Source: Clostridiales bacterium
GTDB taxonomy: Bacteria; Bacillota; Clostridia; Oscillospirales; CAG-272
DNA length: 64,000 bases
Reading direction: 5' to 3'
Assembly (NCBI GenBank): GCA_012519315.1
Contig: JAAYQM010000082.1
Coordinates: 14,488 to 78,487, forward strand
Both the position numbers and the translations under genes were made by a program. A model generated the notes under the pieces. It did not search any database. It saw nothing but the letters and a program-made list of their open reading frames with translations, and had not been told where the DNA came from. Positions within the stretch are counted from its first letter, which is position 1; every line of letters starts with the position of its first letter. Shown piece after piece: positions 1,289-59,614 of this stretch.

Positions 1289-1564
1289 AAAAAGAAAAAC
1301 AAAAAGCCCTCGTCCCCATGGGACGAAGGCATAAAGACCTCCGCGGTGCCACCCAAATAGATTGACAAAGCAATCCACTTTGATTTCTGCAGACAAGCTG
1401 CAGAACGGCTGTAACGTGCCGAACACGTCCGGATCTACTCACTTTTAATAAAAGCTTTCTGCCGGCGACTCCGGGTTGTTTTTCACTTAAAAATCCGTAC
1501 CGCGTTCCACCATAACCGCGGCTCTCTGTAACGACCCTTTTAAGCTACTCTTCCCATCACAGTC
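1289..1564 (-). promoter_or_regulatory. T-box leader (tRNA-sensing riboswitch) with terminator, upstream of aspS
   Basis: The minus-strand leader shows an AGTA box (GGGAAGAGTAGC), an AG bulge (ACAGAGAGCC) and a distal loop (TGGTGGAA). The T-box core TTTGGGTGGCACCGCGG is the reverse complement of 1338-1354. It is followed by hairpin GCCTTCGTCCCATGGGGACGAGGGC (1306-1330) and a U-run. Confidence 0.85.
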
Positions 1565-1593
1565 TTTGTCATTGTTGTTTATTATATAAAATT

Positions 1594-1779: not shown

Positions 1780-4700
1780 TTGTTAGGTAAATTGTTTATG
1801 GCAATTAAAATTACTTATAAAAAAAATGTTCTCGTGGCTTTGTTCCTTTTGATCGCCCTTTTACTTTGTGTAGGAATACAAGCCGGTGAAGGGATTTTTG
1901 CTTCGGACAGCAGGACGATGACTATCGACGATTTCCTTTCCGATCTTCACTGGACTGCAAAGGGGAGCGCAAAATCTCCTACCCTTCGTACCCTTCATAC
2001 AGATAAACCTGAAGGTTATTTGTCTTTTTCAGGCACCTTTGGCGGAGCAAGCGAGCCTGCCGCTGTGTCCCGATACTTTGATCCGCCGCTGGATCTGTAT
2101 TACTACCCCGGTCTTAGCATAGATGTTGAAATCATAACCGATAAAAAAGCAAATATCCGCTATTATGTCGAGCTTATACTCTATAGCGGGGAGACGGCGG
2201 AAAGCTCAAGGGTTCAATTCATGTCAGGGGAAAGGACATCTGTCGATTTTAACCTCACGACATACACAAACCGAGACTCTGTTGATGAGATGGAGATTCG
2301 CTTATATGAGGTGGTGGACAGTGAGTCAAGTCAGGCTTTTACCTGCAATATATACAAAATCGAAGCCTTCGGTGGAATAGACAGGCAATTGTCCGAGCGG
2401 TTTATGGCTGAGACATACTTTCCTATCGGCGCTTCGGCAGAGTTTTCTGCAGACAATACGTCCCTTGTCATTGTATCCACTCAAAACGATTCTTCAATCG
2501 AAGGGAGGGTTACGGTAAAGCCTGCTTTAGAATATACAAATGCACTCCGAATTGTAATGTCAAATGATACAAAAGCCACCTCGATGCGAGTTTATTATAC
2601 CTACAGCGAAGGCGAGGACTATTCCGACGCTCGTTCTGTTGCCGTTGATATTAAGCGGACTGCCGATTTTGTCTCCTATATAGCTCCCGTAAAGGAAGCC
2701 GAAAGCATAAAAAAGCTGAAAATTGTCTTTTCGGGCAACTCAAAGGGAACTATCGTGATATCCTCCGTTTCGGCGGTCTGCGCCTATACCGATCGCACCG
2801 AGAAAATAGGGGCAATCAATACCTGTGCCGTTTCTGAGGACGGCAAATACATTATTATAAAAGGAACTGTCAAAAATGAGAATACTACCGCATATCGAAA
2901 TTGTACCTTAGCCCTTTATGAGCTCTCCTCTTTTGAGGAAACTGATGCGGTTTTAAAAAGGACGACGCTTCCCACGTCCACCCACCCTATCTCTACAAAA
3001 TTTGAATTTAAGCTTCCTTTGAGCGAGGCGAATTATAGCTCTGTTCTGTCAAAATATGCAATCGTTCTCTATAGAAACGGCTCCATTCTTCAACCTCTGA
3101 TTCTGGTGGACGATCCTAAATACGTCTCAAATACAGCAAACCTTGCCCCGGAAACCCTCAACACAAAACCGCTCAACAACTTTTATAAGGGGGTACAAAC
3201 CGTCTATCTCTCAGGCGTCCAGGAGGCGGGGGCGGGTCAGGTTGTTATCGATGTGGAGATAAACCGGCTGCTAAGCTCTCAAAATAGCGGATATCTTCAT
3301 CTGATTTCCGGGAAATACATTTACTTCGATTCTGCCTATGTTGATTCCCTTGACAGGGAAATTCGTGCTTATACAGCAAGCGGTACCGAGGTTTTACTAA
3401 ACCTTGTCATTACTGAAAGTGATGAAAAAATGCAATATGCCTATGCCGGCAACCGCCCCGATGTGAAATATTACGCCCTTAATGTTTCGAATCTCCAGGG
3501 CGAGCTTTATGCCAACGCGGTGGCTGATTTCCTTTCTCTTAGATATAACGGAACAAACAATATGGCTATCGGCGGCTTTATCCTCGGCAAAAAGATCGAT
3601 CTCGCTACCGAATACAACTATATGGGCGAGAATGTCCGGCTGGATGTTTACGCAAAAAACTATATAAGAGCCCTGCGGCTTGTTTATACAACGGCACAAA
3701 TCCGCAATCCCAATCTGCGTGTCTATGCATCAATCAGCGACGCATGGAGGCAGGATGTTATATACGGCACTCTCTCAGAACAATATGATAGCACCCTTCT
3801 GGTTGAAGCGATGACCGCCCTTATGTCTGCCGAGGGGGCGGTTGAATGGCGGCTACTCTGCCATTCTGAACGCAATGCATTTGGATTATACGAAGGGGAC
3901 AGCATCAATATAAAAAACGACCGAAAGTCAAGAAATACCGCTTCAATGGGCTATATAGGAACAGACAGTATCGAAGTTCTTGCCGGCTTTATCGACGGAC
4001 TGGGGGAGAAATATCCTGCCACACCAAGGGCAATACTCTACTTTTGGCAACCGGATATCGCAAAAACAGGCTCATTGCTCCCCCCTCTCTATGCCTATAA
4101 TTATTATAAGCTACTCTTTGCTAACCGAGTTGAGGGATTTGTCACTTCCTTTAGCGTTTTCGGATCTCCCAGCGGAGACGGGCATGGTTTCCTTTCCCTT
4201 AAAGAACAGATTAAATATATAGATACCGAGCGATCTGTTGATTTCACCAATGATTATTTATCGACCTTCGGTGTGGCAAGCTGGGAGGAGGTTTTCCCCG
4301 ATTTTCGCCACGATCGGGTAGTTTTAAGAACACTCTCGGAGGTGAGCTTGTCAAAAGATATGCCCACCGGAATAAAGGGAAGCTTTGATTACTGGGATTT
4401 TTCCGGAACCGGAAATTCAGAGGGATGGATGCAGGGTGAATATTGCGATTCGCTGACAATTGCAACCACCGAACTTGGTGAGAAGGCGTTAATCTGCGCT
4501 CTTAACGGCGGCGCGTCCGAGTATAGGGAATTTATGGGAACCTATCATATCTATCCCTATACAGAAGACCTGTCCCTTACCCCATGGCTGACTCTAGACC
4601 TTCGTGCTATTTGCACCGACGGTTCGGAGAACAAACTGGAGGTTGTTATTGCAATAGGAGCGGGTTCTGACAGAATTCAGGCTAATACAATTGTAACCAG

Positions 4701-5031
4701 CGGTGAAAAGGTCACCCTTACCATGGATTTAAGCTCATTCACCTCAAAGAAAACTGCAAAATATATAAAAATTTGGGTTAGAGGTGCCGGGTCGGGGCTG
4801 GAAAACGCCACCCTTGAGCTTTATAAAGTAACCGGTCATAGCAAGAATTATGACAGCAGCTCACTTGCAAAGGCTATTGCGGAAGCAAGAAAGAAAGCGT
4901 CCGAAAACAATCCCCTGCCCGCAAATAACGGCATATTATGGGGCGCTGTCATCGGTGGCGCGGTAATTATCTCGGCAATCAGCCTTATTGCTCTTGGTAA
5001 AAAAAGGAATGTCACCATAAATAAAGAGTAA
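1780..5031 (+). CDS. large membrane-anchored extracellular protein, function unknown (possible glycoside-hydrolase-like TIM-barrel core flanked by beta-sandwich modules)
   Basis: ORF track. N-terminal hydrophobic signal/anchor VLVALFLLIALLLCVGIQA. C-terminal TM ILWGAVIGGAVIISAISLIAL followed by GKKR. ATG at 1798 is a more likely start than TTG at 1780. No family recognised with certainty. Confidence 0.6.
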   Translation: MLGKLFMAIKITYKKNVLVALFLLIALLLCVGIQAGEGIFASDSRTMTIDDFLSDLHWTAKGSAKSPTLRTLHTDKPEGYLSFSGTFGGASEPAAVSRYFDPPLDLYYYPGLSIDVEIITDKKANIRYYVELILYSGETAESSRVQFMSGERTSVDFNLTTYTNRDSVDEMEIRLYEVVDSESSQAFTCNIYKIEAFGGIDRQLSERFMAETYFPIGASAEFSADNTSLVIVSTQNDSSIEGRVTVKPALEYTNALRIVMSNDTKATSMRVYYTYSEGEDYSDARSVAVDIKRTADFVSYIAPVKEAESIKKLKIVFSGNSKGTIVISSVSAVCAYTDRTEKIGAINTCAVSEDGKYIIIKGTVKNENTTAYRNCTLALYELSSFEETDAVLKRTTLPTSTHPISTKFEFKLPLSEANYSSVLSKYAIVLYRNGSILQPLILVDDPKYVSNTANLAPETLNTKPLNNFYKGVQTVYLSGVQEAGAGQVVIDVEINRLLSSQNSGYLHLISGKYIYFDSAYVDSLDREIRAYTASGTEVLLNLVITESDEKMQYAYAGNRPDVKYYALNVSNLQGELYANAVADFLSLRYNGTNNMAIGGFILGKKIDLATEYNYMGENVRLDVYAKNYIRALRLVYTTAQIRNPNLRVYASISDAWRQDVIYGTLSEQYDSTLLVEAMTALMSAEGAVEWRLLCHSERNAFGLYEGDSINIKNDRKSRNTASMGYIGTDSIEVLAGFIDGLGEKYPATPRAILYFWQPDIAKTGSLLPPLYAYNYYKLLFANRVEGFVTSFSVFGSPSGDGHGFLSLKEQIKYIDTERSVDFTNDYLSTFGVASWEEVFPDFRHDRVVLRTLSEVSLSKDMPTGIKGSFDYWDFSGTGNSEGWMQGEYCDSLTIATTELGEKALICALNGGASEYREFMGTYHIYPYTEDLSLTPWLTLDLRAICTDGSENKLEVVIAIGAGSDRIQANTIVTSGEKVTLTMDLSSFTSKKTAKYIKIWVRGAGSGLENATLELYKVTGHSKNYDSSSLAKAIAEARKKASENNPLPANNGILWGAVIGGAVIISAISLIALGKKRNVTINKE

Positions 5032-6064: not shown

Positions 6065-6992
6065 TTAGAGTTTTCCCCCTGAACCGAGTACGGTATGGAT
6101 TTTATGTTTTATCATCTTCTTGACCTCTTCGCGGCCGACGGATAAATAGCCTCTCGGATCGAAAACCTCGGGTGATGCAGTCAAAACACGTCTTATACCG
6201 GCTGTCATAGCAAGCCTTATATCTGAATCGATGTTTATTTTACATACAGCTGAGGCTGCGGCACGACGAAGCATCTCCTCTGGTACGCCGCTGGCACCGG
6301 AAAGTGCTCCGCCACAGGCATTTATCTCATCAACAAGCTCGGGTATTACCGAAGATGCACCGTGCAGTACAATCGGGAATCCCGGAAGACGTCTTGCTAT
6401 TTCATCAAGAATATCGAAACGAAGCTTTGCTTCCCCCTTAAATTTAAATGCGCCATGACTTTCCGATAGCAATAGCCAGAGAGTCGACGCCGGTCCTCTC
6501 AACAAACTCTTCTACCTCGTCAGGATCTGTGAACATCGCATCCTCTTCGGAAACATTGACATCGTCCTCAATGCCTGCCAGTTTCCCCAGTTCCCCTTCG
6601 ACGACAACGCCGCGCTCGTGCGCATAGTCGCAAACCTTTTTTGTAAGCTCGATGTTTTCCTCAAAGCTGAGTCTTGAACCGTCAATCATGACCGATGTAA
6701 AGCCGCCATCAATGCAAGCTTTGCAGATCTCAAAATCCTCACCGTGATCAAGATGAAGTGCCACATCTATCCCGGTATCCTCAATCGCCGCACGGGTCAG
6801 AGCCATTAGATAGGCATGCTTGGCATATTTGCGGGCGCCTGCCGACACCTGCAAAATAACCGGAGATTTTTCCTCGGCTGCCGCTTCGGTAATAGCCTGA
6901 ATAATCTCCATATTATTTATGTTGAATGCCCCTATGGCATATCCGCCCGCATATGCGGCCTTGAACATTTCCTTAGTTGTAACTAAAGCCAT
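6065..6992 (-). pseudogene. fba: class II fructose-1,6-bisphosphate aldolase, interrupted by a frameshift near 6458-6464
   Basis: Two track ORFs (6444..6992 and 6065..6505) together make one FBA. The first ends ...GVDSLAIAIGKSWRI* and the second continues SHGAFKFKGEAKLRF...IVLHGASS. DNA at the junction reads ATCGGAAAGTCATGGCGCA where G-T-S-H-G is expected. Confidence 0.8.
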
Positions 6993-7139: not shown

Positions 7140-7568
7140 TTATCCTTGAGCCTGAGGAGCGGGATTTATCGCGATAGATTGCTTTTTGCGTGCGCCTTGT
7201 GCGTTATATGCCGTCTCCGCCGATTCACCAAGGCCGAAGCTAATGCTGATTGCATCATTGACGGCATTCATAATCGAATCATCCAAATGTCCCATTTTCT
7301 CCTTAAGTCTTTTTTTATCTATAGTACGTATCTGCTCCAAAAGGATTACCGAATCCTTTGCAAGCCCAACCTTATCGGCGTATATATCAATATGTGTAGG
7401 CAATCGACTCTTGCCCATTTTGCTTGTAATTGCAGCCGCAATCACTGTTGGACTGTATTTGTTGCCAATGTCGTTTTGAACAATAAGAACCGGTCTAAGA
7501 CCGCCTTGTTCGGATCCGATTACCGGACTTAAATCCGCATAATAAATATCTCCGCGTTTTATGCTCAT
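7140..7568 (-). CDS. mazF: MazF/EndoA(NdoA)-type mRNA interferase toxin with ~25-aa C-terminal extension
   Basis: [49 protein letters not shown]...[17 protein letters not shown] is close to my recollection of B. subtilis EndoA. GGAGTG SD lies upstream of the ATG. Confidence 0.9.
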
Positions 7569-7934: not shown

Positions 7935-9569
<1,635 letters not shown>

Positions 9570-9598: not shown

Positions 9599-12500
9599 TT
9601 AAACCTCTACGAACCCTTCAAAGGTCTTTTCTGCGTTACCGGACAGATAAATAGTTTCTCCGGTGTATTTAACACGCAAATCGCCGCCGGGCAATCGTAC
9701 CGTAATGTCCTTCCCTTTGTCGCAATAGCCGTTTTCGACAGCTGCAACAGCCGCGGCACAGGCTCCTGTTCCGCAGGCAAGGGTTTCTCCGTTGCCCCGC
9801 TCCCAGACTCGAACCTTCAGCACATTGCGTTTAATAACGGTTGCAAATTCGGCGTTGACCCGTTGCGGAAATACTTGATGACGCTCGAAAAGAGGACCGA
9901 TGGTCTCGATGTCGAGGCTGCTCAGCTCATCAAGAAAGGTAACACAATGAGGATTACCGAGGGAAAGCGCCGTTACCCGATATTCCTTATCTCCGATAAC
10001 AAGAGGGGAGTTGATCATTTGAGCCCCGTCATAAAGAACGGGAATTGCCGCCGGTGAAAATTCGGGAGCGCCCATATTCGTTGTGGCGGCAATAACTTCG
10101 CCGTGCAGAATATGCAGCTCGACCTCTTTTATGCCACTGAGGGTTTCTATGGTAACAATGTTGCTGCGTGTAAAACCTTGATCATAGAGATATTTTGCAA
10201 CGCACCGGGTAGCGTTTCCGGCCATTCTGCCTTCGCTGCCGTCCCGATTGTAAATTCGCATCCCCACATCGGCAACCTTTGAATCGGTAATCAGCACGAC
10301 ACCGTCCGCTCCGATTGAGAAATGGCGATTTGATAAGCGAATGGCAAGTGCCTCGGGACTTGAAATTTTCAATTTGTCGTCCCGGCAGTCAAAGTATATA
10401 TAGTCATTGCCAATACCGCTGTATTTAATGAAGGGCAGCTTTCTGCGCTTCTCTCTCATGTTGTTGATATCCACAAGCTCGACGCTGGAGGGGGAATAAC
10501 GTGAGAGCAGGCTGTCGGCAACAGCATTCGCCGTATCAATGGAGGTCAGACAGGGAATGCTGTGCTCAAGGGCCTTACGACGTATTTTCACACTGTCGGC
10601 TGTCGGCAATCGTCCCCGCGCCGAGGTGGAGATTACATAAGAAAGCTTTCCGCTTTCAATCAGTCGGAGGATGTTGTCCTCCCCCTCATGAAGCTTTTTC
10701 ACCGTTTTAACAATCAGCCCGGCGCCGCGCAGCTCCTGTGCTGTGCCCGCCGTTGCATACAGATCAAAGCCGAGAGCCGCATATTTGCGTGCCAGATCGG
10801 CAACCTCGCTTTTGTCAAGATTGCGGACGGTGAAGAGCACCCCGCCCCGTCGGTTAAGATTGCACCCCGCGGCAACAAGCCCCTTATATAGAGCCTCCTC
10901 AAAGACAGATCCGATCCCTAAAACCTCTCCGGTTGACTTCATTTCCGGTCCGAGATGGGCATCAACGCCAACCAATTTTTCAAAGGAGAAGACAGGAACC
11001 TTAACCGCGGTATAGGGCGGCGTTTTGGCAAGACCGGTTCCGTATCCCATATCGGTAAGCTTCTCGCCAAGACAAGCTCGCACCGCAAGATCTACCATTG
11101 GAATTTTTGTAACCTTGCTGATATAAGGAACCGTCCTTGAGGCGCGTGGATTGACCTCAATCACATATAGCTCACTGTCATAAACAAGATACTGAATGTT
11201 GACAAGACCTCGCACCTTTAGAGCCGTTGCTATTTTTGCCGTTTGGTTTACAATGGTATCTATCATGCGCGGATCAATGTTGTATGGAGGATAAACGGCA
11301 ATCGAGTCACCTGAGTGAATACCCGCGCGCTCAATATGCTCCATAATACCCGGAATGAGGATATCCTCTCCGTCGCAAATGGCGTCGATATCAAGCTCAA
11401 TGCCCGACATATACTTGTCAATCAGAATCGGGTTGTCAATCTTGCTTGCGAGGATAATATCGAGATACTCCTCAATATCGCTGTCGCTCCAGGCAATAAT
11501 CATGTTTTGCCCGCCAAGAACATAGGAGGGACGAATCAGCACAGGGTATCCCAATGTGTTGGCGGCGGTCAGCGCCTCTGGCTTTGTGCGGACATTGAGT
11601 CCTTTCGGCCGCTTAATATTAAGGCTTTCGAGCAGGGCATCGAATCTTTCTCTATCCTCGGCGGCGTCAATACTATCAGCCGAGGTGCCGAGGATATTCA
11701 CACCCTGTTTTGCCAGGAAATTGGTTAATTTTATCGCCGTCTGCCCGCCGAAGGCTACAACAACACCGATTGGCTTTTCGGTATTGATGATGTGCATAAC
11801 ATCTTCGTTTGTCAACGGCTCAAAATAAAGCCGGTCGGCAGTATCATAGTCGGTGGAAACGGTCTCAGGGTTGTTGTTTACAATAACCGTTTCATAGCCG
11901 AGGCGGCGCAAGGTACGCACGCAATGAACGGCCGAATAGTCAAACTCGATGCCCTGTCCGATGCGTATCGGACCGGAACCAAAGACAACAACCGTTTTTT
12001 TGCCTGTTTTATAGTTAAGGGCCTCGTTTTCGCCCATAAACGATCCGTAGAAATAGGGGGTTGTTGCGGAAAATTCGGCGGCACAGGTATCAACCGTCCG
12101 GTAAACCCCATGGGCAGGATTCTTAATTTTCTGCCCGGACAAGCGCTCGATTGTGCTGTCAAGATATCCGAGACGCTTTGCACGCATATACAGGTCGTCG
12201 TCAAGGGGGCTCGACTCAAGCTCCCTCTCAATCGAAATAAGGCGATTTAACTTTGACAAAAACCAACGATCGATTTTGGTTATTTCGTATATTTCATCGG
12301 TGGAAAAGTCCCGGCGAAGGGCTTCAAAGATATAAAATAGGCGCATATCGGTAGGCTTTGAAATTGATTCGAGAAGCTGCTGATCATCAAGCTTTTGGAC
12401 AGAGCTGCTACGCAGGCAGTCCAGCGAAATCTCGGCGCCGCGAACCGCCTTCATCAATGCCTCCTCAAAGGAAGCGCCAATAGCCATAACCTCACCGGTA

Positions 12501-13633
12501 GCCTTCATTTGCGTGCCAAGCTGTTTTGAGGCATATACAAATTTATCAAAGGGCCATTTCGGGAATTTAACCACGGCATAATCGACTACCGGCTCGAAAA
12601 ATGCACAGGTTTTTCCGGTTATTTCATTCTTTATTTCACCAAGGTTGTATCCGACAGCAATTTTTGCCGCAATTCTAGCAATGGGATAGCCGGTCGCCTT
12701 AGAAGCGAGAGCGGAGGAACGGGATACCCTAGGGTTAACCTCGATAACGGCATACTCAAAGTTGTCCGGGTTTAAGGCAAACTGACAGTTGCATCCCCCT
12801 TTAATATCAAGCTTTGTAATAATCCTCAGCGCAGACGAACGCAGCATCTGATATTCCACATCGGAAAGGGTCATAGCCGGTGCAACAACAATGCTGTCCC
12901 CGGTATGCACCCCCACCGGGTCAAAGTTTTCCATTGAGCAAACGGTAAGCACATTACCGAGATTGTCACGGACAACCTCAAACTCAATTTCCTTCCATCC
13001 CGCAACACTTCGTTCTGCCAGTATCTGATGAATCGGGGAGAGGCGAATGCCGTTTGATGCAATCAGACGCAATTCCTCTTCGTTTGATGCAATACCCCCG
13101 CCCGTGCCGCCAAGGGTGAAGGCGGGACGTATTATAATCGGATAGCCAACCGCCTCGGCAAAGTCAAGAGCCTCCTCGACGGTAGTGGCGATAACAGAAG
13201 GAATGCAGGGCTCTCCGATGCTCTCCATAGCCTCTTTAAATAGCTTTCGATCCTCCGCCATATCGATGGTTTCAGGGGAGGTTGAGAGCAGTCGAACTCC
13301 TTGCTCGGCAAGAAATCTGCTTTTCGCAAGCTCCATTGAAAGATTAAGACCCGTTTGTCCGCCGAAGGAGGGAAGGATGCTGTCCGGACGCTCCTTAATG
13401 ATAATGCGCTTGATTATATCAAGATCCAGGGGTTCGATGTAAATATGGTCGGCAAGCTCGCTGTCCGTCATGATGGTAGCAGGATTTGAGTTGATCAAAA
13501 CCACCTCGATACCCTCCTCCCGCATGGCACGGCAGGCCTGGGTTCCGGCATAATCAAACTCTGCTGCCTGTCCGATAACAATCGGACCGGAGCCGATAAT
13601 AAGAACTTTCTTTATACTTTTATCGAGCGGCAT
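9599..13633 (-). CDS. carB: carbamoyl-phosphate synthase large subunit fused in frame to a C-terminal diaminopimelate-epimerase-like domain
   Basis: 1344 aa against ~1060-1070 for ordinary CarB. Residues 1-1058 are a complete CarB: two ATP-grasp halves plus an MGS-like domain ending ...SPSSVELVDINN. Residues ~1059-1344 (coordinates 9599-10459) read MREKRRKLPFIKYSGIGNDYIYFD...SLGNPHCVTF...WERGNGETLACGTGACAAAVAAV, i.e. DapF-like. Confidence 0.9.
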   Translation of the reverse strand: MPLDKSIKKVLIIGSGPIVIGQAAEFDYAGTQACRAMREEGIEVVLINSNPATIMTDSELADHIYIEPLDLDIIKRIIIKERPDSILPSFGGQTGLNLSMELAKSRFLAEQGVRLLSTSPETIDMAEDRKLFKEAMESIGEPCIPSVIATTVEEALDFAEAVGYPIIIRPAFTLGGTGGGIASNEEELRLIASNGIRLSPIHQILAERSVAGWKEIEFEVVRDNLGNVLTVCSMENFDPVGVHTGDSIVVAPAMTLSDVEYQMLRSSALRIITKLDIKGGCNCQFALNPDNFEYAVIEVNPRVSRSSALASKATGYPIARIAAKIAVGYNLGEIKNEITGKTCAFFEPVVDYAVVKFPKWPFDKFVYASKQLGTQMKATGEVMAIGASFEEALMKAVRGAEISLDCLRSSSVQKLDDQQLLESISKPTDMRLFYIFEALRRDFSTDEIYEITKIDRWFLSKLNRLISIERELESSPLDDDLYMRAKRLGYLDSTIERLSGQKIKNPAHGVYRTVDTCAAEFSATTPYFYGSFMGENEALNYKTGKKTVVVFGSGPIRIGQGIEFDYSAVHCVRTLRRLGYETVIVNNNPETVSTDYDTADRLYFEPLTNEDVMHIINTEKPIGVVVAFGGQTAIKLTNFLAKQGVNILGTSADSIDAAEDRERFDALLESLNIKRPKGLNVRTKPEALTAANTLGYPVLIRPSYVLGGQNMIIAWSDSDIEEYLDIILASKIDNPILIDKYMSGIELDIDAICDGEDILIPGIMEHIERAGIHSGDSIAVYPPYNIDPRMIDTIVNQTAKIATALKVRGLVNIQYLVYDSELYVIEVNPRASRTVPYISKVTKIPMVDLAVRACLGEKLTDMGYGTGLAKTPPYTAVKVPVFSFEKLVGVDAHLGPEMKSTGEVLGIGSVFEEALYKGLVAAGCNLNRRGGVLFTVRNLDKSEVADLARKYAALGFDLYATAGTAQELRGAGLIVKTVKKLHEGEDNILRLIESGKLSYVISTSARGRLPTADSVKIRRKALEHSIPCLTSIDTANAVADSLLSRYSPSSVELVDINNMREKRRKLPFIKYSGIGNDYIYFDCRDDKLKISSPEALAIRLSNRHFSIGADGVVLITDSKVADVGMRIYNRDGSEGRMAGNATRCVAKYLYDQGFTRSNIVTIETLSGIKEVELHILHGEVIAATTNMGAPEFSPAAIPVLYDGAQMINSPLVIGDKEYRVTALSLGNPHCVTFLDELSSLDIETIGPLFERHQVFPQRVNAEFATVIKRNVLKVRVWERGNGETLACGTGACAAAVAAVENGYCDKGKDITVRLPGGDLRVKYTGETIYLSGNAEKTFEGFVEV

Positions 13634-14717
13634 TCTTTTTGCCCTCCTTCATTAAACCGATAAAACGATCAAAAAGAAAACGTGTGTCATGAGGGCCTGC
13701 CGCCGCTTCAGGATGAAATTGAACGGTGAAAGCATTATATGCAGGATAGTCGATTCCCTCGCAGGTTTTATCGTTTGCGTTAATGAAGCTCACCTGCATA
13801 TCGGAGCTTGTGGGAATTGAATTGTTAATAACGGCATAGCCGTGGTTTTGGCTTGTTATATATAATTTCCCAGTTTTGATGTCCTCAACCGGCTGATTTG
13901 TCCCTCGATGACCATATTTTAATTTTTCCGTCTTTGCGCCCATGGTAAGTGCTAACAGCTGATGACCAAGACAAATGCCAAAGGTGGGGATCCGATGCTT
14001 GATAAGGTGACGCAGCTGCTCTATGCACTCGGTATTATCCGCCGGATTGCCGGGACCGTTGGATAATAAAATGCCGTCAGGATTCAGTGCAAGGATTTCC
14101 TCGGCGGTGGTGCTGGCAGGCAGAACAATCACCTCGCATCCCCTTTCACAAAGGCAACGGCTTATGGCTCTCTTTGCACCGTAGTCAATCAAGGCTACTT
14201 TAAACTGCGCATCCTTGCTTTTGCAGGTATACGCCTGTGTGCAGGAAACCGCCTCAGCCGCTTTTGTGATTTTATGCTGTTTTAGAGCCGCAAGCTCATT
14301 TTCGGAAAGATAAGGAACATATGATATTCTGCCGTTCATCACCCCGTGCTCGCGTACAAGCTTTGTTATAGAGCGAGTATCCGCTCCGCTGATGCCAACA
14401 ATCCCGTGGGTCTTGAGATAATCCTCAAGCTTTCCCTCGCAGCGAAAATTAGAGGGCTCATCACACAGATCATAGACAACATAGGCTTTCAGGCGGGGAT
14501 GGCGGCTCTCCGCATCCTCGCTGATGAGACCGTAATTGCCGATCTGGGGAAAGGTTTGTACAACGATTTGACCGTAATAGCTCGGGTCGGTCAGAGTTTC
14601 CATATATCCGGTCATGCCGGTTGTAAAAACAACCTCTCCGGTTACCTCTGCACGAGCGCCAATGCTTTTACCGCCAAAAACCGCACCGTTTTCGAGTATC
14701 AGGAAGATATTATTCAT
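13620..14717 (-). CDS. carA: carbamoyl-phosphate synthase small (glutaminase) subunit
   Basis: GMTGYMETLTDPSYYGQIV, GICLGHQLL, NHGYAV. The stop overlaps the carB start by 14 nt. Confidence 0.95.
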   Translation of the reverse strand: MNNIFLILENGAVFGGKSIGARAEVTGEVVFTTGMTGYMETLTDPSYYGQIVVQTFPQIGNYGLISEDAESRHPRLKAYVVYDLCDEPSNFRCEGKLEDYLKTHGIVGISGADTRSITKLVREHGVMNGRISYVPYLSENELAALKQHKITKAAEAVSCTQAYTCKSKDAQFKVALIDYGAKRAISRCLCERGCEVIVLPASTTAEEILALNPDGILLSNGPGNPADNTECIEQLRHLIKHRIPTFGICLGHQLLALTMGAKTEKLKYGHRGTNQPVEDIKTGKLYITSQNHGYAVINNSIPTSSDMQVSFINANDKTCEGIDYPAYNAFTVQFHPEAAAGPHDTRFLFDRFIGLMKEGKKNAAR

Positions 14718-14953: not shown

Positions 14954-15532
14954 TCACATCTCATAGGTGCGGAGAATGTCCTCGGCAATGCGGCGTTTGG
15001 AAACGCGCATATCCATTGCCTGCTTTTCGATATGCCGATGTGCCATAGGTTCGGTCATGCCAAGATATTGAATCAACACGCATTTTGCACGATCTACCAT
15101 GCGGATTTCATCTATCTTGCTTTTTAATGTATTGTTTTCAAAACGAAGATTGTTCAGCCGGTTATGCAGAGCTGTCATAAGCCGCAATGTATGCAAGAAG
15201 GCTTGACGGGAAAGGGGTTTTTCCAAAACCGCGATCCCCTTTTCTTCATATCTATATAAAATCTCATCATACCGCTCTGTATGGACAATCAAAATCACAC
15301 AAGCGCCCGTTTCGGCAACAATCTTCTCGGAAAGCTCAAGCCCAGATTCGTCGGAAAGAGGCATGTTGATGACGATGATATCATAGTCCTCCGTGAAGAC
15401 AATCTGACGTGCCTCTCCCCCGCTCAGTGCGGTAATGATCTCATAATTTGAAGTTGACTCGATCAAATTGTACAACAAATCACAGCCCTTGCCCGCCTCT
15501 GATACGATTAACACCCGTTTCAAAGATATCAC
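14954..15532 (-). CDS. ANTAR-domain antiterminator with an atypical (probably non-phosphorylatable) receiver domain
   Basis: N-terminal REC-like fold plus C-terminal ANTAR pattern VDRAKCVLIQYLGMTEPMAHRHIEKQAMDMRVSKRRIAEDIL. The acidic pocket is SE rather than DD. The segment DIIVINMPLSDESG has no Asp at the expected acceptor position. Confidence 0.8.
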   Translation of the reverse strand: MISLKRVLIVSEAGKGCDLLYNLIESTSNYEIITALSGGEARQIVFTEDYDIIVINMPLSDESGLELSEKIVAETGACVILIVHTERYDEILYRYEEKGIAVLEKPLSRQAFLHTLRLMTALHNRLNNLRFENNTLKSKIDEIRMVDRAKCVLIQYLGMTEPMAHRHIEKQAMDMRVSKRRIAEDILRTYEM

Positions 15533-15880: not shown

Positions 15881-17977
15881 ATGTCTGTTTATGCAAAAAA
15901 CATACCGGAGATATTTGGCAGCATGGTTTTCAGCGACAAAGTCATGCGTGAAAAGTTGCCAAGAGATACTTACAAAGCGCTGAAAAAAACAATTGAAAAA
16001 GGCTCCCTTCTTACAACTGAGGTAGCCAACGCCGTTGCCGCCGCCATGAAGGAATGGGCGCTCGAAAAGGGCGCAACCCATTTTACACACTGGTTTCAGC
16101 CCTTGACCGGCATCACCGCCGAAAAGCATGACAGCTTTATCGAACAGTCGAACGGATCTGTTATTATGGAGTTTACTGGCAAGGCGCTGATTCAGGGAGA
16201 GCCTGACGCCTCCTCCTTCCCATCAGGCGGATTGAGAGCCACCTTTGAAGCAAGAGGATACACTACCTGGGACCCCTCATCCTATGCCTTTATTAAAGAA
16301 AAAACACTTTACATTCCTACAGCCTTTTGCTCCTACAGCGGTCAGGTTCTTGACAAAAAAACCCCTCTTCTCCGCTCGATGGAGGCACTTGAGAGGCAGG
16401 TGCTCAGAATATTGGCATTGTTTGGCAGTGTTGAGGGAGTTTCTGTAAAAACAACGGTGGGCGCCGAGCAGGAGTATTTCCTTATTGACAAGAGCATGTA
16501 TGAAAAGCGCAAGGATCTGAGAATGTGCGGCAGAACACTCTTTGGCGCCAAGCCACCTAAGGGGCAGGAGCTTGAGGACCATTATTTCGGCTCCATCAAA
16601 ACCCGGGTGAAAAATTTTATGGAAGATCTGAATCAGGAGCTATGGAAGCTTGGAATCGCCACAAAAACAGAACATAACGAAGTCGCCCCCGGTCAGCATG
16701 AGCTGGCGCCGATCTTCACCACCACCAATATTGCGTGCGACCACAATCAGCTTACCATGGAAATGATGAAGAAGGTCGCTGCAAGACACGACCTTGTCTG
16801 TCTCTTGCATGAAAAGCCCTTTGCCGGCGTCAACGGAAGCGGCAAGCACAACAACTGGTCGATCTCAAGCTCAGCGAACGGTAATCTGTTTGAGCCGGGA
16901 GACTCCCCGGAGAAGAACGCACAGTTTCTCCTCTTTTTGTCGGCGGTTATTAAGGCGGTTGACAATTATGCCGATCTTTTGCGTGTGTCGGTATCGACGG
17001 CGAGCAATGATCACCGTCTGGGCGCCAGTGAGGCACCTCCCGCCATTGTTTCCATCTTCCTCGGCACAGAGCTGACAGCTATTCTCGAGTCTATTGAAAA
17101 CGGCAATTGCTATGATAAAAAATGCGAATCGGTGATGGATATCGGCGTTTCTGTTCTTCCCCATTTCCCTAAAGACAATACCGACCGCAACCGGACCTCC
17201 CCGTTTGCCTTCACCGGTAATAAATTCGAATTTAGAATGGTTGGGTCCTCCCTTTCCATTGCCGATGCAAACATTGTAATAAATACCATTGTTGCAGAGG
17301 AGCTTTCGAAGTTTGCCGACATTTTGGAGAAGACCGACGATTTGAATGCCGCTATTACCGAAATTGTGCGTACCACCTATAAAAACCATAAACGCATTAT
17401 TTTCAACGGAGATGGTTATTCTGCCGAATGGCAGGAGGAGGCGGAACGGCGCAATTTATGCAATTTTAAAACGGCCTATGAAGCCATTCCCCGTTTTAAG
17501 GATGAGAAAAACATTGCTTTGTTTACAAAGCATATGATTTTTACCAAGGAGGAAATAGAATCCCGCTGCGAGGTCATGCTTGAGAATTATATCAAAACGA
17601 TTAACATAGAGGCATTGACCATGCTGGATATGGTAAAGAAGGATATTCTTCCGGCGGCCGCCGCCTATGTCGGTGATCTTACCGATAATGTCTTGAAGAA
17701 AAAAACTCTCGGCATCGGCACATGCGAGTATGAAAGCAGTCTTATTTCCAAGCTTTCCGGTCTATCCGACCTTCTGTACCGCAAGAGCGGGGAGCTTGAT
17801 CTTCTGCTTATCGAGGCGAGGAGTATTGAACAGACAGAGGCGAAGGCTCAATATTACGGGAAAACAATATTTGAAAAAATGTGCGAAATACGCATGGCCG
17901 CCGACGAAATTGAGTCGTTGACCGCTTCAAAATACTGGCCTTATCCGGTTTACAGCGACATTCTTTTCAGTGTCTGA
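15881..17977 (+). CDS. glnA: glutamine synthetase, type III
   Basis: 698 aa. N-terminus MSVYAKNIPEIFGSMVFSDKVMREKLPRDTYKALKKTIEKG and EHNEVAPGQHELAPIF are typical of GSIII. AAGGAG SD present. Confidence 0.92.
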   Translation: MSVYAKNIPEIFGSMVFSDKVMREKLPRDTYKALKKTIEKGSLLTTEVANAVAAAMKEWALEKGATHFTHWFQPLTGITAEKHDSFIEQSNGSVIMEFTGKALIQGEPDASSFPSGGLRATFEARGYTTWDPSSYAFIKEKTLYIPTAFCSYSGQVLDKKTPLLRSMEALERQVLRILALFGSVEGVSVKTTVGAEQEYFLIDKSMYEKRKDLRMCGRTLFGAKPPKGQELEDHYFGSIKTRVKNFMEDLNQELWKLGIATKTEHNEVAPGQHELAPIFTTTNIACDHNQLTMEMMKKVAARHDLVCLLHEKPFAGVNGSGKHNNWSISSSANGNLFEPGDSPEKNAQFLLFLSAVIKAVDNYADLLRVSVSTASNDHRLGASEAPPAIVSIFLGTELTAILESIENGNCYDKKCESVMDIGVSVLPHFPKDNTDRNRTSPFAFTGNKFEFRMVGSSLSIADANIVINTIVAEELSKFADILEKTDDLNAAITEIVRTTYKNHKRIIFNGDGYSAEWQEEAERRNLCNFKTAYEAIPRFKDEKNIALFTKHMIFTKEEIESRCEVMLENYIKTINIEALTMLDMVKKDILPAAAAYVGDLTDNVLKKKTLGIGTCEYESSLISKLSGLSDLLYRKSGELDLLLIEARSIEQTEAKAQYYGKTIFEKMCEIRMAADEIESLTASKYWPYPVYSDILFSV

Positions 17978-24061: not shown

Positions 24062-24775
24062 TTATTTAGTGAAAATCGGCAGATTGTAACGACAGTAAAT
24101 AAAAGCGGCAAGGCTGGCAGCGGACAAGATCAGGGACACAATAACAAAGGTAGGGGTCAGTTTCACCCCTTCAATTTTGGGTATGATCTTCTTTTTTGAA
24201 AGGAAAGGAATCACCGCTCCGATAATAAGGGTTAGCAGCGTTACCTCAAGAGGCAAAAGAAGCAAATTTTTGATACCGCTTGTTGCAACGTAGATTGAAT
24301 AGCCCTTACTTCCGGTGGAGCCCATTACCACACGCCATAAAGAACCAAGCAGGGTATTGATAAAAACATTGATAATAAATTTTGGGGCGATTATGCGAAG
24401 GGGGGATATTTTTGTCCGATATAAAAATAACGCAAAAACAAGTCCGGCAAGCAGAGCGCTGAGGGTATAGCCGGGGAAGAACGGACCTGAAGCAAATAGG
24501 AGATATGTAACAATATCCGATATGACACCCCCGATCATTGCAATAACCGGACCATAGATCATAGCCCCCAGACCGGTTATCAAAAAGGAAATTTGAACAC
24601 GAATTAAAGGAGTAATGTAGATCTGAAGGGTACCTAATACCGAAGCGAGAGCGATAAGCATACTTGCAAGAACAATGATCTTCAGGTTGTTCAGCTCACT
24701 TGCCGCCGTTTTCCAATATGCAAGAGAAAAGGGATGGGGAAAAACTCTGTCATTTTTTTGAAACAAATTTTTCAT
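24062..24775 (-). CDS. folT: ECF-transporter S component, folate family (predicted)
   Basis: Polytopic membrane protein (…GPFFPGYTLSALLAGLVFALFLYR…) directly downstream of a THF riboswitch. Start set at the ATG at 24775 (MKNLFQ), with a GGAGG upstream. Confidence 0.7.
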   Translation of the reverse strand: MKNLFQKNDRVFPHPFSLAYWKTAASELNNLKIIVLASMLIALASVLGTLQIYITPLIRVQISFLITGLGAMIYGPVIAMIGGVISDIVTYLLFASGPFFPGYTLSALLAGLVFALFLYRTKISPLRIIAPKFIINVFINTLLGSLWRVVMGSTGSKGYSIYVATSGIKNLLLLPLEVTLLTLIIGAVIPFLSKKKIIPKIEGVKLTPTFVIVSLILSAASLAAFIYCRYNLPIFTK

Positions 24776-24921
24776 GTCTGCTATGTAACCTCCAATAAAT
24801 ACATACACATTCCACTCTGTGTACATCCGGGCGGCTACAAGATAAGGAGCAACACACAACAAGGCCGGTTGATTATAACCTGCGCTTTGCATATTGCTCC
24901 CACTAAAAGACACCGTATGCA

Positions 24922-25030
24922 ACAGCGGGATGCGATATATACACCGCAGCTATCCGAATTTTTCGGATGCTTTCGTCCGCGAAGCAACTCCCCGTCTTCG
25001 CAGCACTTGACGCGCATATATCTACTCTGT
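24922..25030 (-). promoter_or_regulatory. THF (tetrahydrofolate) riboswitch aptamer
   Basis: The minus strand reads ACAGAGTAGATATATGCGCGTCAAGTGCTGCGAAGACGGGGAGTTGC...GGACGAAAGC...GCTGCGGTG...CGCATCCCGCTGT. These blocks match the conserved THF blocks AGAGUAG / CGCGUUAAGUG / GGGAUG / ACGAAGC / GCGCGGUG / GCAUCCGCU as I recall them from the E. siraeum aptamer. Confidence 0.85.
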
Positions 25031-25404
25031 GTTTTGAGCCATTATAGCACATTCATAACAGCATCGCAATGCATTGTTAATATAATTCAAAATTCGTTTA
25101 CAATAAATGTCGAACAGGGAACAATCATACAAACAGCTCCCGGCGGGATGACATATTGTACTGAAAACTGCACAAAGTGCGTAATATTCTATAGAAACAA
25201 TAAAAAAGGACGTGCAACCACAAAGGATCAACTATTCGGCAGAGAAGAGAACGGCGGCGACGGACAAGGACAGCCGGGTGAACAACAGATAGGGGGGATG
25301 GTGCGAACCGTCTTTATCTATGCGACTTATTACAAACTTTACAGGAAAAGGGCTATAATATTTATAAAACAAGAAAACGGTTGACTTTATCAACCGAAAA
25401 TCTG

Positions 25405-35527: not shown

Positions 35528-37240
35528 TCAGAACTCACGCATCAGATTAAAGGATTGAATGAGATTTAACCGTCCGTATCCCCATTGATTGTTCGGATAA
35601 ATCACATTGTCGCTGCGGGAGCAGCCCCGAATCAAGAAGGCTTTTATCTGATAGGTTCCGATTGTAAGATCGTTCCCCTCCACAATACCCCATTGCAGCA
35701 TCAGTGCACCGGCGCCGGCTGTTATTGCAGCCGCAACGCTGGTGCCGCTCATTACTCCTGTCTCCGCAGGAAATGGCACGGCACCGGTGACATTAACGCC
35801 GGGCGCCGTCAGGTCCGGCGACATTTCAGGCAGCCTTGTCGGTCCCCAGGATGAATCGCTAAAGAGGCTGTTGTTTAACGAGTTGTATGCTCCACAGGTG
35901 ATAACTCCCACCGCTGTGGCAGGAACAACGATGGTGTAATTTGGTGTTGGAGTGAGAAATTCCACATTGGGGGAGACAAATCCCGTTATAGGGAGCCATG
36001 CATGGTAGGTTCCGTTCAATACAATATCGCCAAAGACGTTGATCGTCCATATGCCGGGCGTTGCATTCAAAATCTTTACGGTAGTCTCCTGTCCGCCGCT
36101 CCCCTCAAGGGGGAAAAAATATTCCACTATAACTGTTGCTCTCTCAAGAACCAGCCTTGATTGGAGGGTTGATCCCGGCTTTGCCGGAACCCGTCCTATT
36201 GTTTCGCCGGTAGGGGATCTTATTGAAACGGATATGCGGTCGGAGGCTGAGTTTATTATTGTTATCAAAACATTTCCGGCATTCTCTCCCATTCTGATGT
36301 CAATGCTCTGCACATCCCCGGTATTCTCAAGGACACCCTGGGTATGATGTCTTGCCCGGCTTTCGTTTCCTGCTGCGGCTGTCAGGCATAGTCCTCGCAA
36401 ATTGGAAATGGAGCTGAGATATTCCTCAAACACACTAAATCCATCATGCCCACCGAGATTAGTTCCAAGCCCGATACAGACAGAGACCGGACGGCCAAGT
36501 TCGGTCGCTTTTCTCAATATGTACTCAATTCCGATCATAACCGATGTGGATTCGAAGGCATTTTCCTGTTCAGGCGGTATCAGATATTTTTCAAGATAAT
36601 AGGATCGTGCTTTTCGCAGCTTTACTACTATTAATTCTGCATCGGGCGCGGCTCCGATATTTGTGCCGATCTCCCTTCCGGCCGCCACCGAGGCTAAAAA
36701 GGTGCCGTGCCCGACGGTGTCGCGATGAGGAACGATTTCATAAGGATCGGGGGCTTGAAGCGCTTGGTTAATCTGTTCGTTGGTATACTCTGTTCCCTCA
36801 AAAAAACCCTCAGGAATATTATCGTTAATTGTCTGGTCGAAAATATACAGTATCTTACTCGTTCCGTCCTCATAGATAAAGGAAGGATTGGTATAATCTA
36901 TTCCGGTATCGACAATACCTACAATGGTTCCTCGTCCGCGCAGATCGAGAAAGGGCTGCTCCTGAACCTGTGTAATACCCGCTGATTCAAGGTTAGCCTT
37001 ATCCATCAGACCAAGCACCACCGGAGCGGTTCTTAAAACACCGGCCCCGAGCTCTCGGACAAAAGTATCAACAAGATTTCTTGGAAGATAGCCGACAACA
37101 AATCTTCCGTACAACGTTTCCGCTAAGCGGATACCGGGAAACCTCCTCATTATTACATCAAGCCGCTCGCTGCGTCTTGTGATAAAATCTATCGTATTCG
37201 GATCAAGAATAAAATCTAAAAACTCATTACCGTTATTCAT
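35528..37240 (-). CDS. Csp-type germination subtilisin (S8), third of three tandem copies
   Basis: No signal peptide and an N-terminal prodomain. Catalytic triad is intact: GIVDTGIDYTNP (D), VGHGTFLASVAAG (H), MSGTSVAAAITAG (S). Long identical runs with the 37305..39005 copy. Confidence 0.8.
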   Translation of the reverse strand: MNNGNEFLDFILDPNTIDFITRRSERLDVIMRRFPGIRLAETLYGRFVVGYLPRNLVDTFVRELGAGVLRTAPVVLGLMDKANLESAGITQVQEQPFLDLRGRGTIVGIVDTGIDYTNPSFIYEDGTSKILYIFDQTINDNIPEGFFEGTEYTNEQINQALQAPDPYEIVPHRDTVGHGTFLASVAAGREIGTNIGAAPDAELIVVKLRKARSYYLEKYLIPPEQENAFESTSVMIGIEYILRKATELGRPVSVCIGLGTNLGGHDGFSVFEEYLSSISNLRGLCLTAAAGNESRARHHTQGVLENTGDVQSIDIRMGENAGNVLITIINSASDRISVSIRSPTGETIGRVPAKPGSTLQSRLVLERATVIVEYFFPLEGSGGQETTVKILNATPGIWTINVFGDIVLNGTYHAWLPITGFVSPNVEFLTPTPNYTIVVPATAVGVITCGAYNSLNNSLFSDSSWGPTRLPEMSPDLTAPGVNVTGAVPFPAETGVMSGTSVAAAITAGAGALMLQWGIVEGNDLTIGTYQIKAFLIRGCSRSDNVIYPNNQWGYGRLNLIQSFNLMREF

Positions 37241-37304
37241 AGAAAGTTCAACATATTATTCAGATGATGAATAATCCCTCCGTGATTTATTGGCAGTATT
37301 CTTC

Positions 37305-39005
37305 TTATCCTATCGTACTCATTAAAACAAAGGTTTGAATCAGGTTTAATCGCCCATATCCCCATTGTGTGTTAGGATAATTGATTGTCACATCGCGATT
37401 GCAGCCCCTGATCATATAAGCTTTAATCTGGTAGGTGCTTATAAGAGGCTCGTTCCCTTCAACAATTCCCCATTGCAGCATGAGAGCAGCGGCGCCCGCC
37501 GTAATTGCTGCGGCGACGCTGGTTCCGCTCATATCCCCGGGTCCGGTAGGAAACTCTCCTGTTACATCAACGCCCGGAGCGGTAAAATCGGGCAGTATCG
37601 CCGGCAGCCTTGAAGGTCCCCATGATGTATCGGAATAAAGGCTGTTGTTTGCGCTGTTGTAAGCACCAACGGTAATAACTCCCACCGCTGTACCGGGTAC
37701 TACTATCGTATAGTTTGGGGTAGGGGATGTAAACTCCACATTCGGCGACACAAAGCCGGTAATGGGCAGCCATGCATGATAGGTGCCGTCCAGCACAATA
37801 TCCCCATATACAGTTATCGTCCAAAGCCCGGGTGTCGCATTTAAAAGCTTAACGATGCTCAACTGTCCGCCGCTGCCGTCCAGTGGGAAATAATATTCAA
37901 CAATCACTGTTGCTCGTTCAAGGACAAGCCTCGACAGATAGACCGTTTCGGTTTTTGAGGGCACACGACCGACCGCTTCTCCCGCGGGAGATCGTATTGA
38001 CAGTGACAGCTTATCCGAACCTCCGTTTACAATCGAAACAAATATATCGCCGGCATTTTCTCCAACACGAATATCGATATTTTGCGTGTCTCCCTCCCTT
38101 TCTAAAAAGCCTTGGGTATGATGTCTTGCCTGGCTTTCGTTTCCGGCAGCTACAACAAGGCTGACACCAGAAAGGTTGCTCAATGATGTCAGATATTCCT
38201 CAAATATGCTAAAACCGTCATGAGTCCCGAAATTGGTCCCAAGTCCAAGACAGATTGATACCGGGCGGCGAAGCTCTTGCGCTCTTCTTAAAATATATTC
38301 AAGCCCCATCATCACCGAGCTTGATTCATAAGCGTTTTCCTGATCGGGCGGTATTAGATATTTTTCGAGATAATAAGGTCTGGCCTTTCGCAGTTTAACT
38401 ACAATTAAATCGGCATCGGGCGCCGCTCCGACCCGATCATCCTGCGGACGCCCCGCCGCTACAGAGGCTAAAAAGGTTCCGTGACCGACATTGTCTCTAT
38501 GGGGAACGATTTCATACGGATTGGGAGATCGCAAAGCTTCGTTGATTTGCTCATTTGAATATTCTCTGCCAAAGATAAATGATGCTTCCTGATCGCCTCT
38601 TTCTGTTTGGTCTAATATGTATTGAATCTTGCTTGTTCCATCCTCTCTGATAAAAGCAGGATTGGTGTAATCGATACCGGTATCTACGATGCCTACCAAG
38701 GTATTGGTGCCCCGAAGATTCAAAAAGGTCTGTTCCTGAACGCTGATGATCCCCGCCGACTCAAGATCCCCTCTGTCGGTAAGCCCTAAGACAACAGGCT
38801 CAATATCAACAAGACCCCCGATATTCTGAATCAAATCCTCGACATCCTGTCTTCGAACAAAGCCGAGAAAAAACCTTTCGTATATGGACGGAACAACAAA
38901 CACATCGGGAACCAGACGTTGAAAATCCTGATAAATCCTGCTGCTTCTTGCAATGAAATCCACATAATCGGGGTCGAAAAAGAAATCATGGTTTTGAGTG
39001 TTCAT
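37305..39005 (-). CDS. Csp-type germination subtilisin (S8), second copy
   Basis: Triad GIVDTGIDYTNP / VGHGTFLASVAAG / MSGTSVAAAITAG. AGGAGGG SD present. Confidence 0.8.
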   Translation of the reverse strand: MNTQNHDFFFDPDYVDFIARSSRIYQDFQRLVPDVFVVPSIYERFFLGFVRRQDVEDLIQNIGGLVDIEPVVLGLTDRGDLESAGIISVQEQTFLNLRGTNTLVGIVDTGIDYTNPAFIREDGTSKIQYILDQTERGDQEASFIFGREYSNEQINEALRSPNPYEIVPHRDNVGHGTFLASVAAGRPQDDRVGAAPDADLIVVKLRKARPYYLEKYLIPPDQENAYESSSVMMGLEYILRRAQELRRPVSICLGLGTNFGTHDGFSIFEEYLTSLSNLSGVSLVVAAGNESQARHHTQGFLEREGDTQNIDIRVGENAGDIFVSIVNGGSDKLSLSIRSPAGEAVGRVPSKTETVYLSRLVLERATVIVEYYFPLDGSGGQLSIVKLLNATPGLWTITVYGDIVLDGTYHAWLPITGFVSPNVEFTSPTPNYTIVVPGTAVGVITVGAYNSANNSLYSDTSWGPSRLPAILPDFTAPGVDVTGEFPTGPGDMSGTSVAAAITAGAAALMLQWGIVEGNEPLISTYQIKAYMIRGCNRDVTINYPNTQWGYGRLNLIQTFVLMSTIG

Positions 39006-39082
39006 AGATCACCCTCCTGATGCTTCAACATCAACAGATTTGCCCTGATAAATCATACAATTCGGCTGTATTGAGTCTGCCG

Positions 39083-57437: not shown

Positions 57438-57562
57438 AATATCAGAAAGCATGAAAAGGCAAAGTAAGTGAAAGCTTACGGCGCAAAGCTATAGGGTCTG
57501 TGTCCTTTTTGGGATATGACGGCCAGTTGCCACTGCAAATTTATTTGCAGTGGCATTTTTTA
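57438..57562 (+). promoter_or_regulatory. c-di-GMP-I (GEMM-I)-like riboswitch, copy A, with intrinsic terminator
   Basis: AAAAGGCAAAG-UAAGU-GAAA-GCUUAC-GGCGCAAAGCUAUAGGGUC...GACGGCCAGUUGCC matches the GEMM-I hallmarks GGCAAA / GNRA tetraloop hairpin / (A)CGCAAAGC / GGGUC / closing UUGCC. The terminator GCCACTGCAAAT-TT-ATTTGCAGTGGC plus T6 is at 57529-57561. Confidence 0.8.
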
Positions 57563-58947: not shown

Positions 58948-59029
58948 ATAAGAATAAAGCCCTTGAAACTATCTAAGCGCTTGTTCATATAATAGAATAA
59001 ATTAATTAAAATAAATAAGGAGATTTATT

Positions 59030-59610: not shown

Positions 59611-59614
59611 ATTT

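Follow-up and report, generated by a model that had tools for sequence, protein, structure and literature searches.

What becomes of an enzyme domain that has been joined to a second enzyme and has lost one of its two catalytic thiols? This question is raised by a locus on contig JAAYQM010000082.1 of a Clostridiales bacterium (assembly GCA_012519315.1), which we analyzed as a stretch of 64,000 nucleotides (forward-strand positions 14,488 to 78,487; hereafter the window). A single open reading frame (ORF) in the window encodes CarB, the large subunit of carbamoyl-phosphate synthase (CPSase), followed in frame by a homologue of the diaminopimelate (DAP) epimerase DapF in which alanine stands in the place of the first catalytic cysteine. 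The fusion is real, conserved and widespread among metagenome-assembled genomes of Clostridia, not unique to this contig, and loss of this cysteine is confined to DapF domains fused to CarB. Because the thiol is lost only in fusions, while the binding pocket seems frozen and purifying selection on it seems strong, we favor, with modest confidence, the reading that the domain is an epimerase-dead, DAP-binding pseudoenzyme kept for a role linked to CarB, probably sensing or assembly; both its ligand binding and its effect on CPSase are what we infer from these patterns. The parts of the fusion in window coordinates are as follows.

9599..13633 (-): complete carB::dapF fusion ORF, 1344 aa plus stop
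10460..13633 (-): CarB part, residues 1-1058, with two ATP-grasp halves, oligomerisation domain, allosteric domain and native C-terminal tail
10544..10804 (-): MGS-like allosteric domain of CarB, residues 944-1030 (Pfam PF02142, 67.6 bits)
10439..10459 (-): junction MREKRRK, in which the CarB tail ends and a linker of about five residues leads to the first DapF strand; no Shine-Dalgarno (SD) sequence upstream
9602..10432 (-): DapF-homologous two-lobe domain, residues 1068-1344 (TIGR00652; PDB match 2otn, E=4.7e-74)
10220..10222 (-): Ala1138 (GCC), at the first catalytic cysteine (Cys73 of Haemophilus influenzae DapF), from alignments to solved DapF structures
9773..9775 (-): Cys1287 (TGC), the second catalytic cysteine, retained (Cys217 of H. 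influenzae DapF; LA-C-GTGA), from the same alignments
span 9767..10408 (-): retained DAP-binding residues, with H. influenzae DapF numbers in brackets: N1076 (N11), N1129 (N64), G1139-N1140 (G74-N75), N1227 (N157), N1260 (N190), E1278-R1279 (E208-R209) and G1288-T1289 (G218-S219)

Structure and authenticity of the fusion

The larger part of the protein is a complete CarB. Hidden Markov models (HMMs) for CarB matched residues 1-1043 with 1473.6 bits (NF003671; cutoff 599) and 1436.4 bits (TIGR01369; cutoff 1027), and Pfam detected two copies each of CPSase_L_D1 and CPSase_L_D2, one CPSase_L_D3 and the MGS domain. Equivalog HMM, domain set and an adjoining carA gene all identify this half as CarB. 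In an alignment to residues 940-1053 of E. coli CarB, the allosteric domain keeps the equivalents of K954, T974, G976, T977, K993 and T1016. From the E. coli structures, we take K954, T974, T977, K993 and T1016 to form the site for uridine monophosphate (UMP) and inosine monophosphate (IMP). Compared with E. coli-type CarB (PDB 1a9x and 1jdb), the protein has all four canonical parts, conserves these five positions and is encoded next to, and overlapping, carA, but it differs in carrying an additional 286-residue C-terminal domain of DapF fold about five residues past the native C-terminus. No characterised CarB is known to carry a C-terminal DapF-fold domain.

An original prediction, made from the sequence of the window, had described a complete CarB, including its MGS-like domain, that runs without a stop codon into the tail; the 1344-aa ORF and the HMM and Pfam matches agree with this description. 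The junction reads ...VELVDINN-MREKRRKLPFIKYSGIGNDY, and its methionine codon lies at 10457-10459, as had been proposed. What did not hold is the view of this methionine as the start of the DapF-like domain, because it lies inside the conserved C-terminal tail of CarB (fusion consensus ELVDINxMRxEK). DapF homology begins about eight residues further on, and PDB alignments of the tail begin at tail residues 7-9. We likewise found no SD sequence before the junction methionine, in agreement with the prediction, whereas AAGGAGG precedes the start of carB.

A lost stop codon at the junction had been a concern from the outset. The same 1344-aa protein is present in NCBI as NLK39919.1 (on a 103-kb contig) and on a biogas-fermenter contig in ENA ERZ925054, and a 99.8%-identical strain recovered from a different sample with a different assembler (ERZ3460576) has both the open junction and the alanine. 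The gene of that strain differs from ours in three codons (one synonymous, two non-synonymous), all of them in CarB and none in DapF. Because these three independent assemblies agree, with neither a stop codon nor a frameshift at the junction, we rejected an assembly or sequencing artefact. The chance that a stop codon was lost or a cysteine codon miscalled is negligible: at least 37 species share this uninterrupted fusion and its junction is conserved among them, the change from TGC (Cys) to GCC (Ala) takes two substitutions, and we found no point in support of an artefact.

Active site and recurrent loss of the first cysteine

The tail is a clear homologue of DapF, as originally predicted. 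TIGR00652 matched residues 1068-1342 with 256-261 bits (261.4 at best) against an equivalog cutoff of 114.65, while the model for the bifunctional DapF/glutamate racemase (NF038284) scored 102 bits, below its cutoff of 350. We used AlphaFold2 to model residues 930-1344 (MGS plus DapF) from an alignment of 119 fusion sequences. Across both domains the model has a mean predicted local distance difference test (pLDDT) score of 90.7 and a predicted template modeling (pTM) score of 0.77, and its DapF part superposes best on the ligand-bound DapF 9mro_A (Foldseek template modeling (TM) score 0.92, root-mean-square deviation 1.8 A), indicating that the predicted DapF fold is intact. Relative to known DapF proteins (TIGR00652; PDB 2otn, 9mro and 2gke), the domain has 41% identity to the B. 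anthracis and cyanobacterial enzymes, the same two-lobe fold, all DAP-binding residues and the second catalytic cysteine, but it has alanine for the first catalytic cysteine and is the tail of CarB rather than a free protein.

In alignments to 2otn, 9mro and 3ejx, the alanine of GRM-A-GNATRC faces the catalytic cysteine. The catalytic pair (Cys73 and Cys217) is therefore incomplete, with Ala1138 on one side and Cys1287 on the other, as the original prediction had stated for both residues. Since the first catalytic cysteine is alanine, the two-thiol mechanism cannot operate. This agrees with the earlier argument that one thiol does not make a normal epimerase, and it fits the finding that Cys-to-Ser mutants of DapF and its homologue PddB retain less than 0.1% activity (PMC8225329). 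Judged by its residues, the domain should be dead as a two-base epimerase and, although a DapF homologue, should not be annotated as a working epimerase. The substrate-binding side is different. [quoted passage not shown] The domain thus has the signature of a pseudoenzyme, in which a catalytic residue is lost and the substrate-binding residues are kept.

We scanned GTDB species representatives for related loci and obtained a reference set of 80 loci from 80 assemblies. The fusion is present in 37 of the 80, about 27 of them with complete ORFs of roughly 1340-1377 aa, and the fused loci include one on a closed 2.85-Mb chromosome and one on a 2.0-Mb contig. Labelled taxa with the fusion include Christensenellales, Oscillospiraceae, Acutalibacteraceae, Ruminococcaceae and Syntrophomonas; the species of the window lies outside the reference set, with best identities of 58% for DapF and 68-70% for CarB. 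When the MGS and DapF domains were used together as a query against metagenomic protein clusters, the best 120 matches were all fusions, mostly partial ORFs, which places the fusion in at least 120 clusters. These matches are named either "diaminopimelate epimerase, partial" or "carbamoyl-phosphate synthase large subunit", and full-length fusions carry only the CarB name in public databases. Our literature search found no paper describing a CarB-DapF fusion, in line with the original prediction, but the rarity that this might imply is contradicted by the 37 reference genomes and at least 120 clusters. The search for orthologous fusions of the tail that had been proposed at the time shows them to be widespread, with cysteine loss recurring among them. 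The two states of the catalytic pair were distributed among the reference genomes as follows.

Standalone DapF: both cysteines in 43/43; first cysteine lost in 0
Fused DapF: both cysteines in 22/37; first cysteine lost in 15 (12 Gly, 2 Ser, 1 Ala)

The difference in loss between fused and standalone domains (15/37 versus 0/43) gives a Fisher p=1.4e-6, with the two groups lying largely in separate clades; three changes of fusion state were counted on the reference tree. The two serine cases also lack the second cysteine. From their intact residues, the 22 fusions with both cysteines are probably bifunctional. A larger set of 299 unique domains included 36 without the first cysteine (25 Gly, 5 Ala, 5 Ser and 1 Phe), every one of them in a CarB fusion, and six of these 36 lack the second cysteine as well. 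One DapF without the cysteine that seemed to stand alone (P0019) proved to be a fusion truncated by the end of its contig: the reading frame continues open on the upstream side, where it reads ...TELVNINNMR. On neighbor-joining trees built with our own implementation, the minimum number of changes by parsimony for loss of the first cysteine is five on the GTDB reference tree and 14 on the 299-domain tree, where about 34 would be expected for randomly placed tips. Most sequences without the cysteine have nearest neighbors with both.

Despite this repeated loss, the DAP-binding pocket is almost invariant. Among 37 domains lacking the first cysteine, N11, N64, G74, N157, N190, E208, R209 and G218 are each present in 37/37 and N75 in 34/37, and the second cysteine is kept in our protein and in 30/37. 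Around the active site, these domains have acquired no compensating column of Cys, His, Tyr or Lys. Second-shell positions shift in parallel among them, with WERG-S-GET changing to N, T or I, S-M-GNPH to V or L, and MR-M-FN to I.

Selection on the domain was estimated as the ratio of nonsynonymous to synonymous substitution rates (dN/dS) by the Nei-Gojobori method. For the DapF domain, dN/dS was 0.053-0.093 among six species of a clade with glycine at the first position (dS 0.6-1.3), 0.029-0.22 in fusions with both cysteines, and about 0.05 in a Syntrophomonas pair that lacks both catalytic residues and has synonymous sites near saturation; for CarB of fused relatives it was 0.02-0.13. The ratio of DapF to CarB divergence in our protein is 1.33-1.65, against a baseline of 1.35. 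Clades without the cysteine that have only 65-83% internal identity, and are therefore old, still have the pocket. These values suggest that the altered DapF domain is conserved and not decaying, and they point to strong purifying selection on inactive domains in the other cysteine-less clades with measurable divergence.

Possible roles of the fused domain

What might a dead epimerase do at the end of CarB? The host is an uncultured biogas-reactor Clostridia bacterium, in which about five residues separate a complete CarB from a complete DapF fold. We propose that the fused protein was probably a bifunctional CPSase/epimerase at first, and that the thiol abstracting the L-centre proton was then replaced, by alanine in this lineage and independently in at least 5-14 others. 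With every DAP-holding residue still in place, the domain would hold DAP without turning it over. Clamshell closure on the ligand, dimerisation of the DapF type, or both, could then act on the neighboring allosteric domain by way of the very short tether, and CPSase activity or assembly would be matched to how much cell-wall and lysine precursor is available. The most specific version of this proposal, which we advance tentatively, is that the tail is an allosteric CPSase sensor that binds LL- or meso-DAP unturned and, by closing beside the UMP/IMP-binding domain, adjusts the synthesis of carbamoyl phosphate for pyrimidines and arginine to the availability of these precursors. A ligand sensor appended to the allosteric end of CarB was also the option preferred in the original prediction, and it is favored by the invariant pocket, the inferred purifying selection and the restriction of cysteine loss to fusions. 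A plausible rationale for linking DAP to CPSase would be that aspartate feeds both pyrimidines and DAP and that synthesis of the UDP-N-acetylmuramic acid (UDP-MurNAc) peptide needs both uridine triphosphate (UTP) and DAP. There is also a precedent for a non-catalytic role, as E. coli DapF binds and activates RppH (PMC6061791, PMC4227774). In both cases a DapF fold would modulate another enzyme independently of epimerisation; the E. coli protein, however, is an active epimerase that acts non-covalently on a Nudix hydrolase, whereas in the fusion CarB would take the place of the partner, the two are covalently joined and catalysis appears to have been lost. That the epimerase step can be dispensed with is plausible: Christensenella walls contain LL-DAP, a pyridoxal phosphate-dependent DapF2 exists in Firmicutes, and E. 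coli lacking dapF grows normally (GapMind 2026 preprint).

Other explanations rank, in descending order of probability, as scaffold only, one-base enzyme, residual epimerase, recent decay and, last, the artefact dismissed above. It is rather unlikely that the folding, stability or oligomerisation of CarB simply depends on a dead DapF, normally a tight dimer, with no small molecule being sensed. The very short linker and the confident two-part model would suit such an arrangement, E. coli DapF dimerises with a dissociation constant of 22 nM and activates its partner without catalysis, and purifying selection is equally expected for a structural part. Nevertheless, a scaffold leaves unexplained why the polar DAP contacts N11, N64, N157, N190, E208 and R209 stay invariant in all 37 altered domains and why only thiols and second-shell residues change. 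Retention of Cys1287, and of the second cysteine in most of the altered domains, is what would be expected if this thiol still deprotonated one centre of DAP or an analogue stereospecifically, making the protein an eliminase, dehydratase or isomerase, and the parallel second-shell changes might likewise reflect a remodelled active site. PhzF and trans-3-hydroxy-L-proline dehydratase, both in our Foldseek list, share the fold and have one of the two acid/base positions replaced (a cysteine in the dehydratase), so the scaffold can support non-racemase chemistry; they differ in having only 14-15% identity and other pockets, while our domain keeps the DAP pocket specific to DapF. We nonetheless regard one-base chemistry as improbable, because six to seven altered domains have also exchanged the second cysteine (for Ser, Ala or Thr) and still show dN/dS of about 0.05, the first has mostly given way to Gly or Ala, so that no catalytic side chain was gained, and the larger ORFs of the window and of 10 kb past its 3' end include no gene that would point to a substrate or a pathway.

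Still less probable is an epimerase that remains active, with water or another residue serving as the missing base in a protein that is simply bifunctional. The DapF HMM score far above the equivalog cutoff and the intact binding residues would speak for this, and a low flux could suffice, given the growth of E. coli without dapF (GapMind 2026 preprint). Against it stand the near-complete loss of activity in Cys-to-Ser mutants (PMC8225329), the lack of a proton-transfer group in Ala or Gly, the absence of a compensating Cys, His, Lys or Tyr column near the site and the fact that none of the 43 standalone DapFs tolerates the change. The slimmest chance among the accounts of a genuine fusion goes to a recent remnant, in which the epimerase has become dispensable (through another dapF, dapF2 or ddh, or through an LL-DAP wall combined with lysine import) and the domain is decaying without function. 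The LL-DAP wall of Christensenella, one of the fusion-bearing groups, indicates that the need for epimerase can be low, alternative epimerases exist in Firmicutes, and the sole close relative of our lineage is too similar to inform on selection. Yet the domain has no frameshift, stop codon or pocket erosion, its divergence relative to CarB is at baseline, dN/dS is 0.05-0.09, far from 1, in every cysteine-less clade with measurable divergence, and even old clades of this kind keep the pocket.

Several observations weigh against the pseudoenzyme reading. Because fused and standalone DapFs belong largely to separate clades, the contrast in cysteine loss between them is not phylogenetically independent, and the grouping of our protein with the other alanine fusion (L062) as sisters has a bootstrap value of 63%; a common origin of the two alanines was dropped on account of this value. 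Several second-shell residues drift in the altered domains, and the ratio of DapF to CarB dN/dS is about 2-3.7 in cysteine-less pairs as against about 1-2 in pairs with both cysteines, indicating that constraint relative to CarB is mildly relaxed. In our own lineage the only close relative, at 99.8% identity, is uninformative for selection. As most fusions keep both cysteines, sensing may be neither the ancestral nor the general role, and as the second cysteine is kept in our protein, there is room for one-base chemistry. Sequence alone does not decide among sensor, one-base enzyme and scaffold.

If the pseudoenzyme reading is right, CPSase, a textbook allosteric enzyme, would receive a new and directly testable input through a ligand-binding domain derived from an enzyme. 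Peptidoglycan-precursor and nucleotide metabolism would then be joined by a previously unknown regulatory link that arose repeatedly by disabling the fused enzyme. The fusions would also constitute a natural experiment in pseudoenzyme evolution, with the same thiol lost at least 5-14 times within one fusion clade and the pocket apparently frozen under purifying selection. For annotation, dapF may be missed by pathway tools in genomes whose fused copy is active, or counted in those whose copy is dead, and such errors affect predictions of lysine and peptidoglycan synthesis for many gut, rumen and digester Clostridia.

Operon context and other features of the window

The fusion lies in an operon with the order carA-carB::dapF-pyrG, in which the neighbors are as follows.

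13620..14717 (-): carA, CPSase small subunit (NF009475, 466.8 bits); its end overlaps the start of carB by 14 nt
7935..9545 (-): pyrG, CTP synthase (NF003792, 860.9 bits), 53 nt downstream of the fusion

Where relatives carry dapF as a free gene, it very often lies directly upstream of pyrG, as seen in at least 15 references (L012, L015, L016, L022, L023, L028, L029, L033, L037, L047, L061, L063, L067, L072 and L073). Since dapF adjoins pyrG even when unfused, its link to pyrimidine genes predates the fusion or extends beyond it. A different arrangement was observed in Fumia xinanensis NSJ-33 (L065, 4879-8462) and in L030 (4880-8462), where a carA-like gene stands immediately before a standalone dapF, with pyrG next and no carB within 6 kb; the carA-carB::dapF-pyrG operon may have undergone fission there or be at an intermediate stage. 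The suggestion to look for a canonical dapF elsewhere was followed for the 64-kb window, in which tblastn with a canonical DapF matched the fused copy only. The larger ORFs of the window and of 10 kb past its 3' end include no DAP, lysine, ddh or peptidoglycan-precursor genes, and Rfam detected no RNA leader or riboswitch at the carA operon at the gathering threshold.

Between carA and a divergent type III glutamine synthetase-like gene (15881-17977, +) lies an ANTAR-type response regulator (14954-15532, -). Its position beside the CPSase operon may reflect nitrogen-linked antitermination control, with no Rfam element detected there. On the other side of the operon, a PemK-family toxin gene (about 7140-7568, -; coordinates converted from the identical contig L001) lies between pyrG and a class II fructose-bisphosphate aldolase gene (6444-6992, -). 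The latter is shortened to a 182-aa ORF by a 2-bp deletion near 6460 relative to the 99.8%-identical sister strain (L082), which encodes 289 aa; either this strain carries a frameshift or the assembly is in error here.

Further from the operon, a 1083-aa ORF with a TTG start (1780-5031, +) matches no NCBIfam model, and its exact product is not on record for any gene. A T-box leader (116 bits) occupies 1316-1569 (-). A tetrahydrofolate riboswitch (24921-25031, -; 81 bits) lies directly upstream of an ORF of 286 aa (24062-24922) that has no Pfam match at E<=1e-8. Two tandem c-di-GMP-I riboswitches (57448-57534 and 57747-57833, +) precede five consecutive ORFs without a Pfam match (57904-62873, +), which may form an uncharacterised operon controlled by cyclic di-GMP. 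Finally, three tandem subtilase genes (35528-40789, -), one with a CspB prodomain, resemble the CspBAC germination proteases of spore formers.

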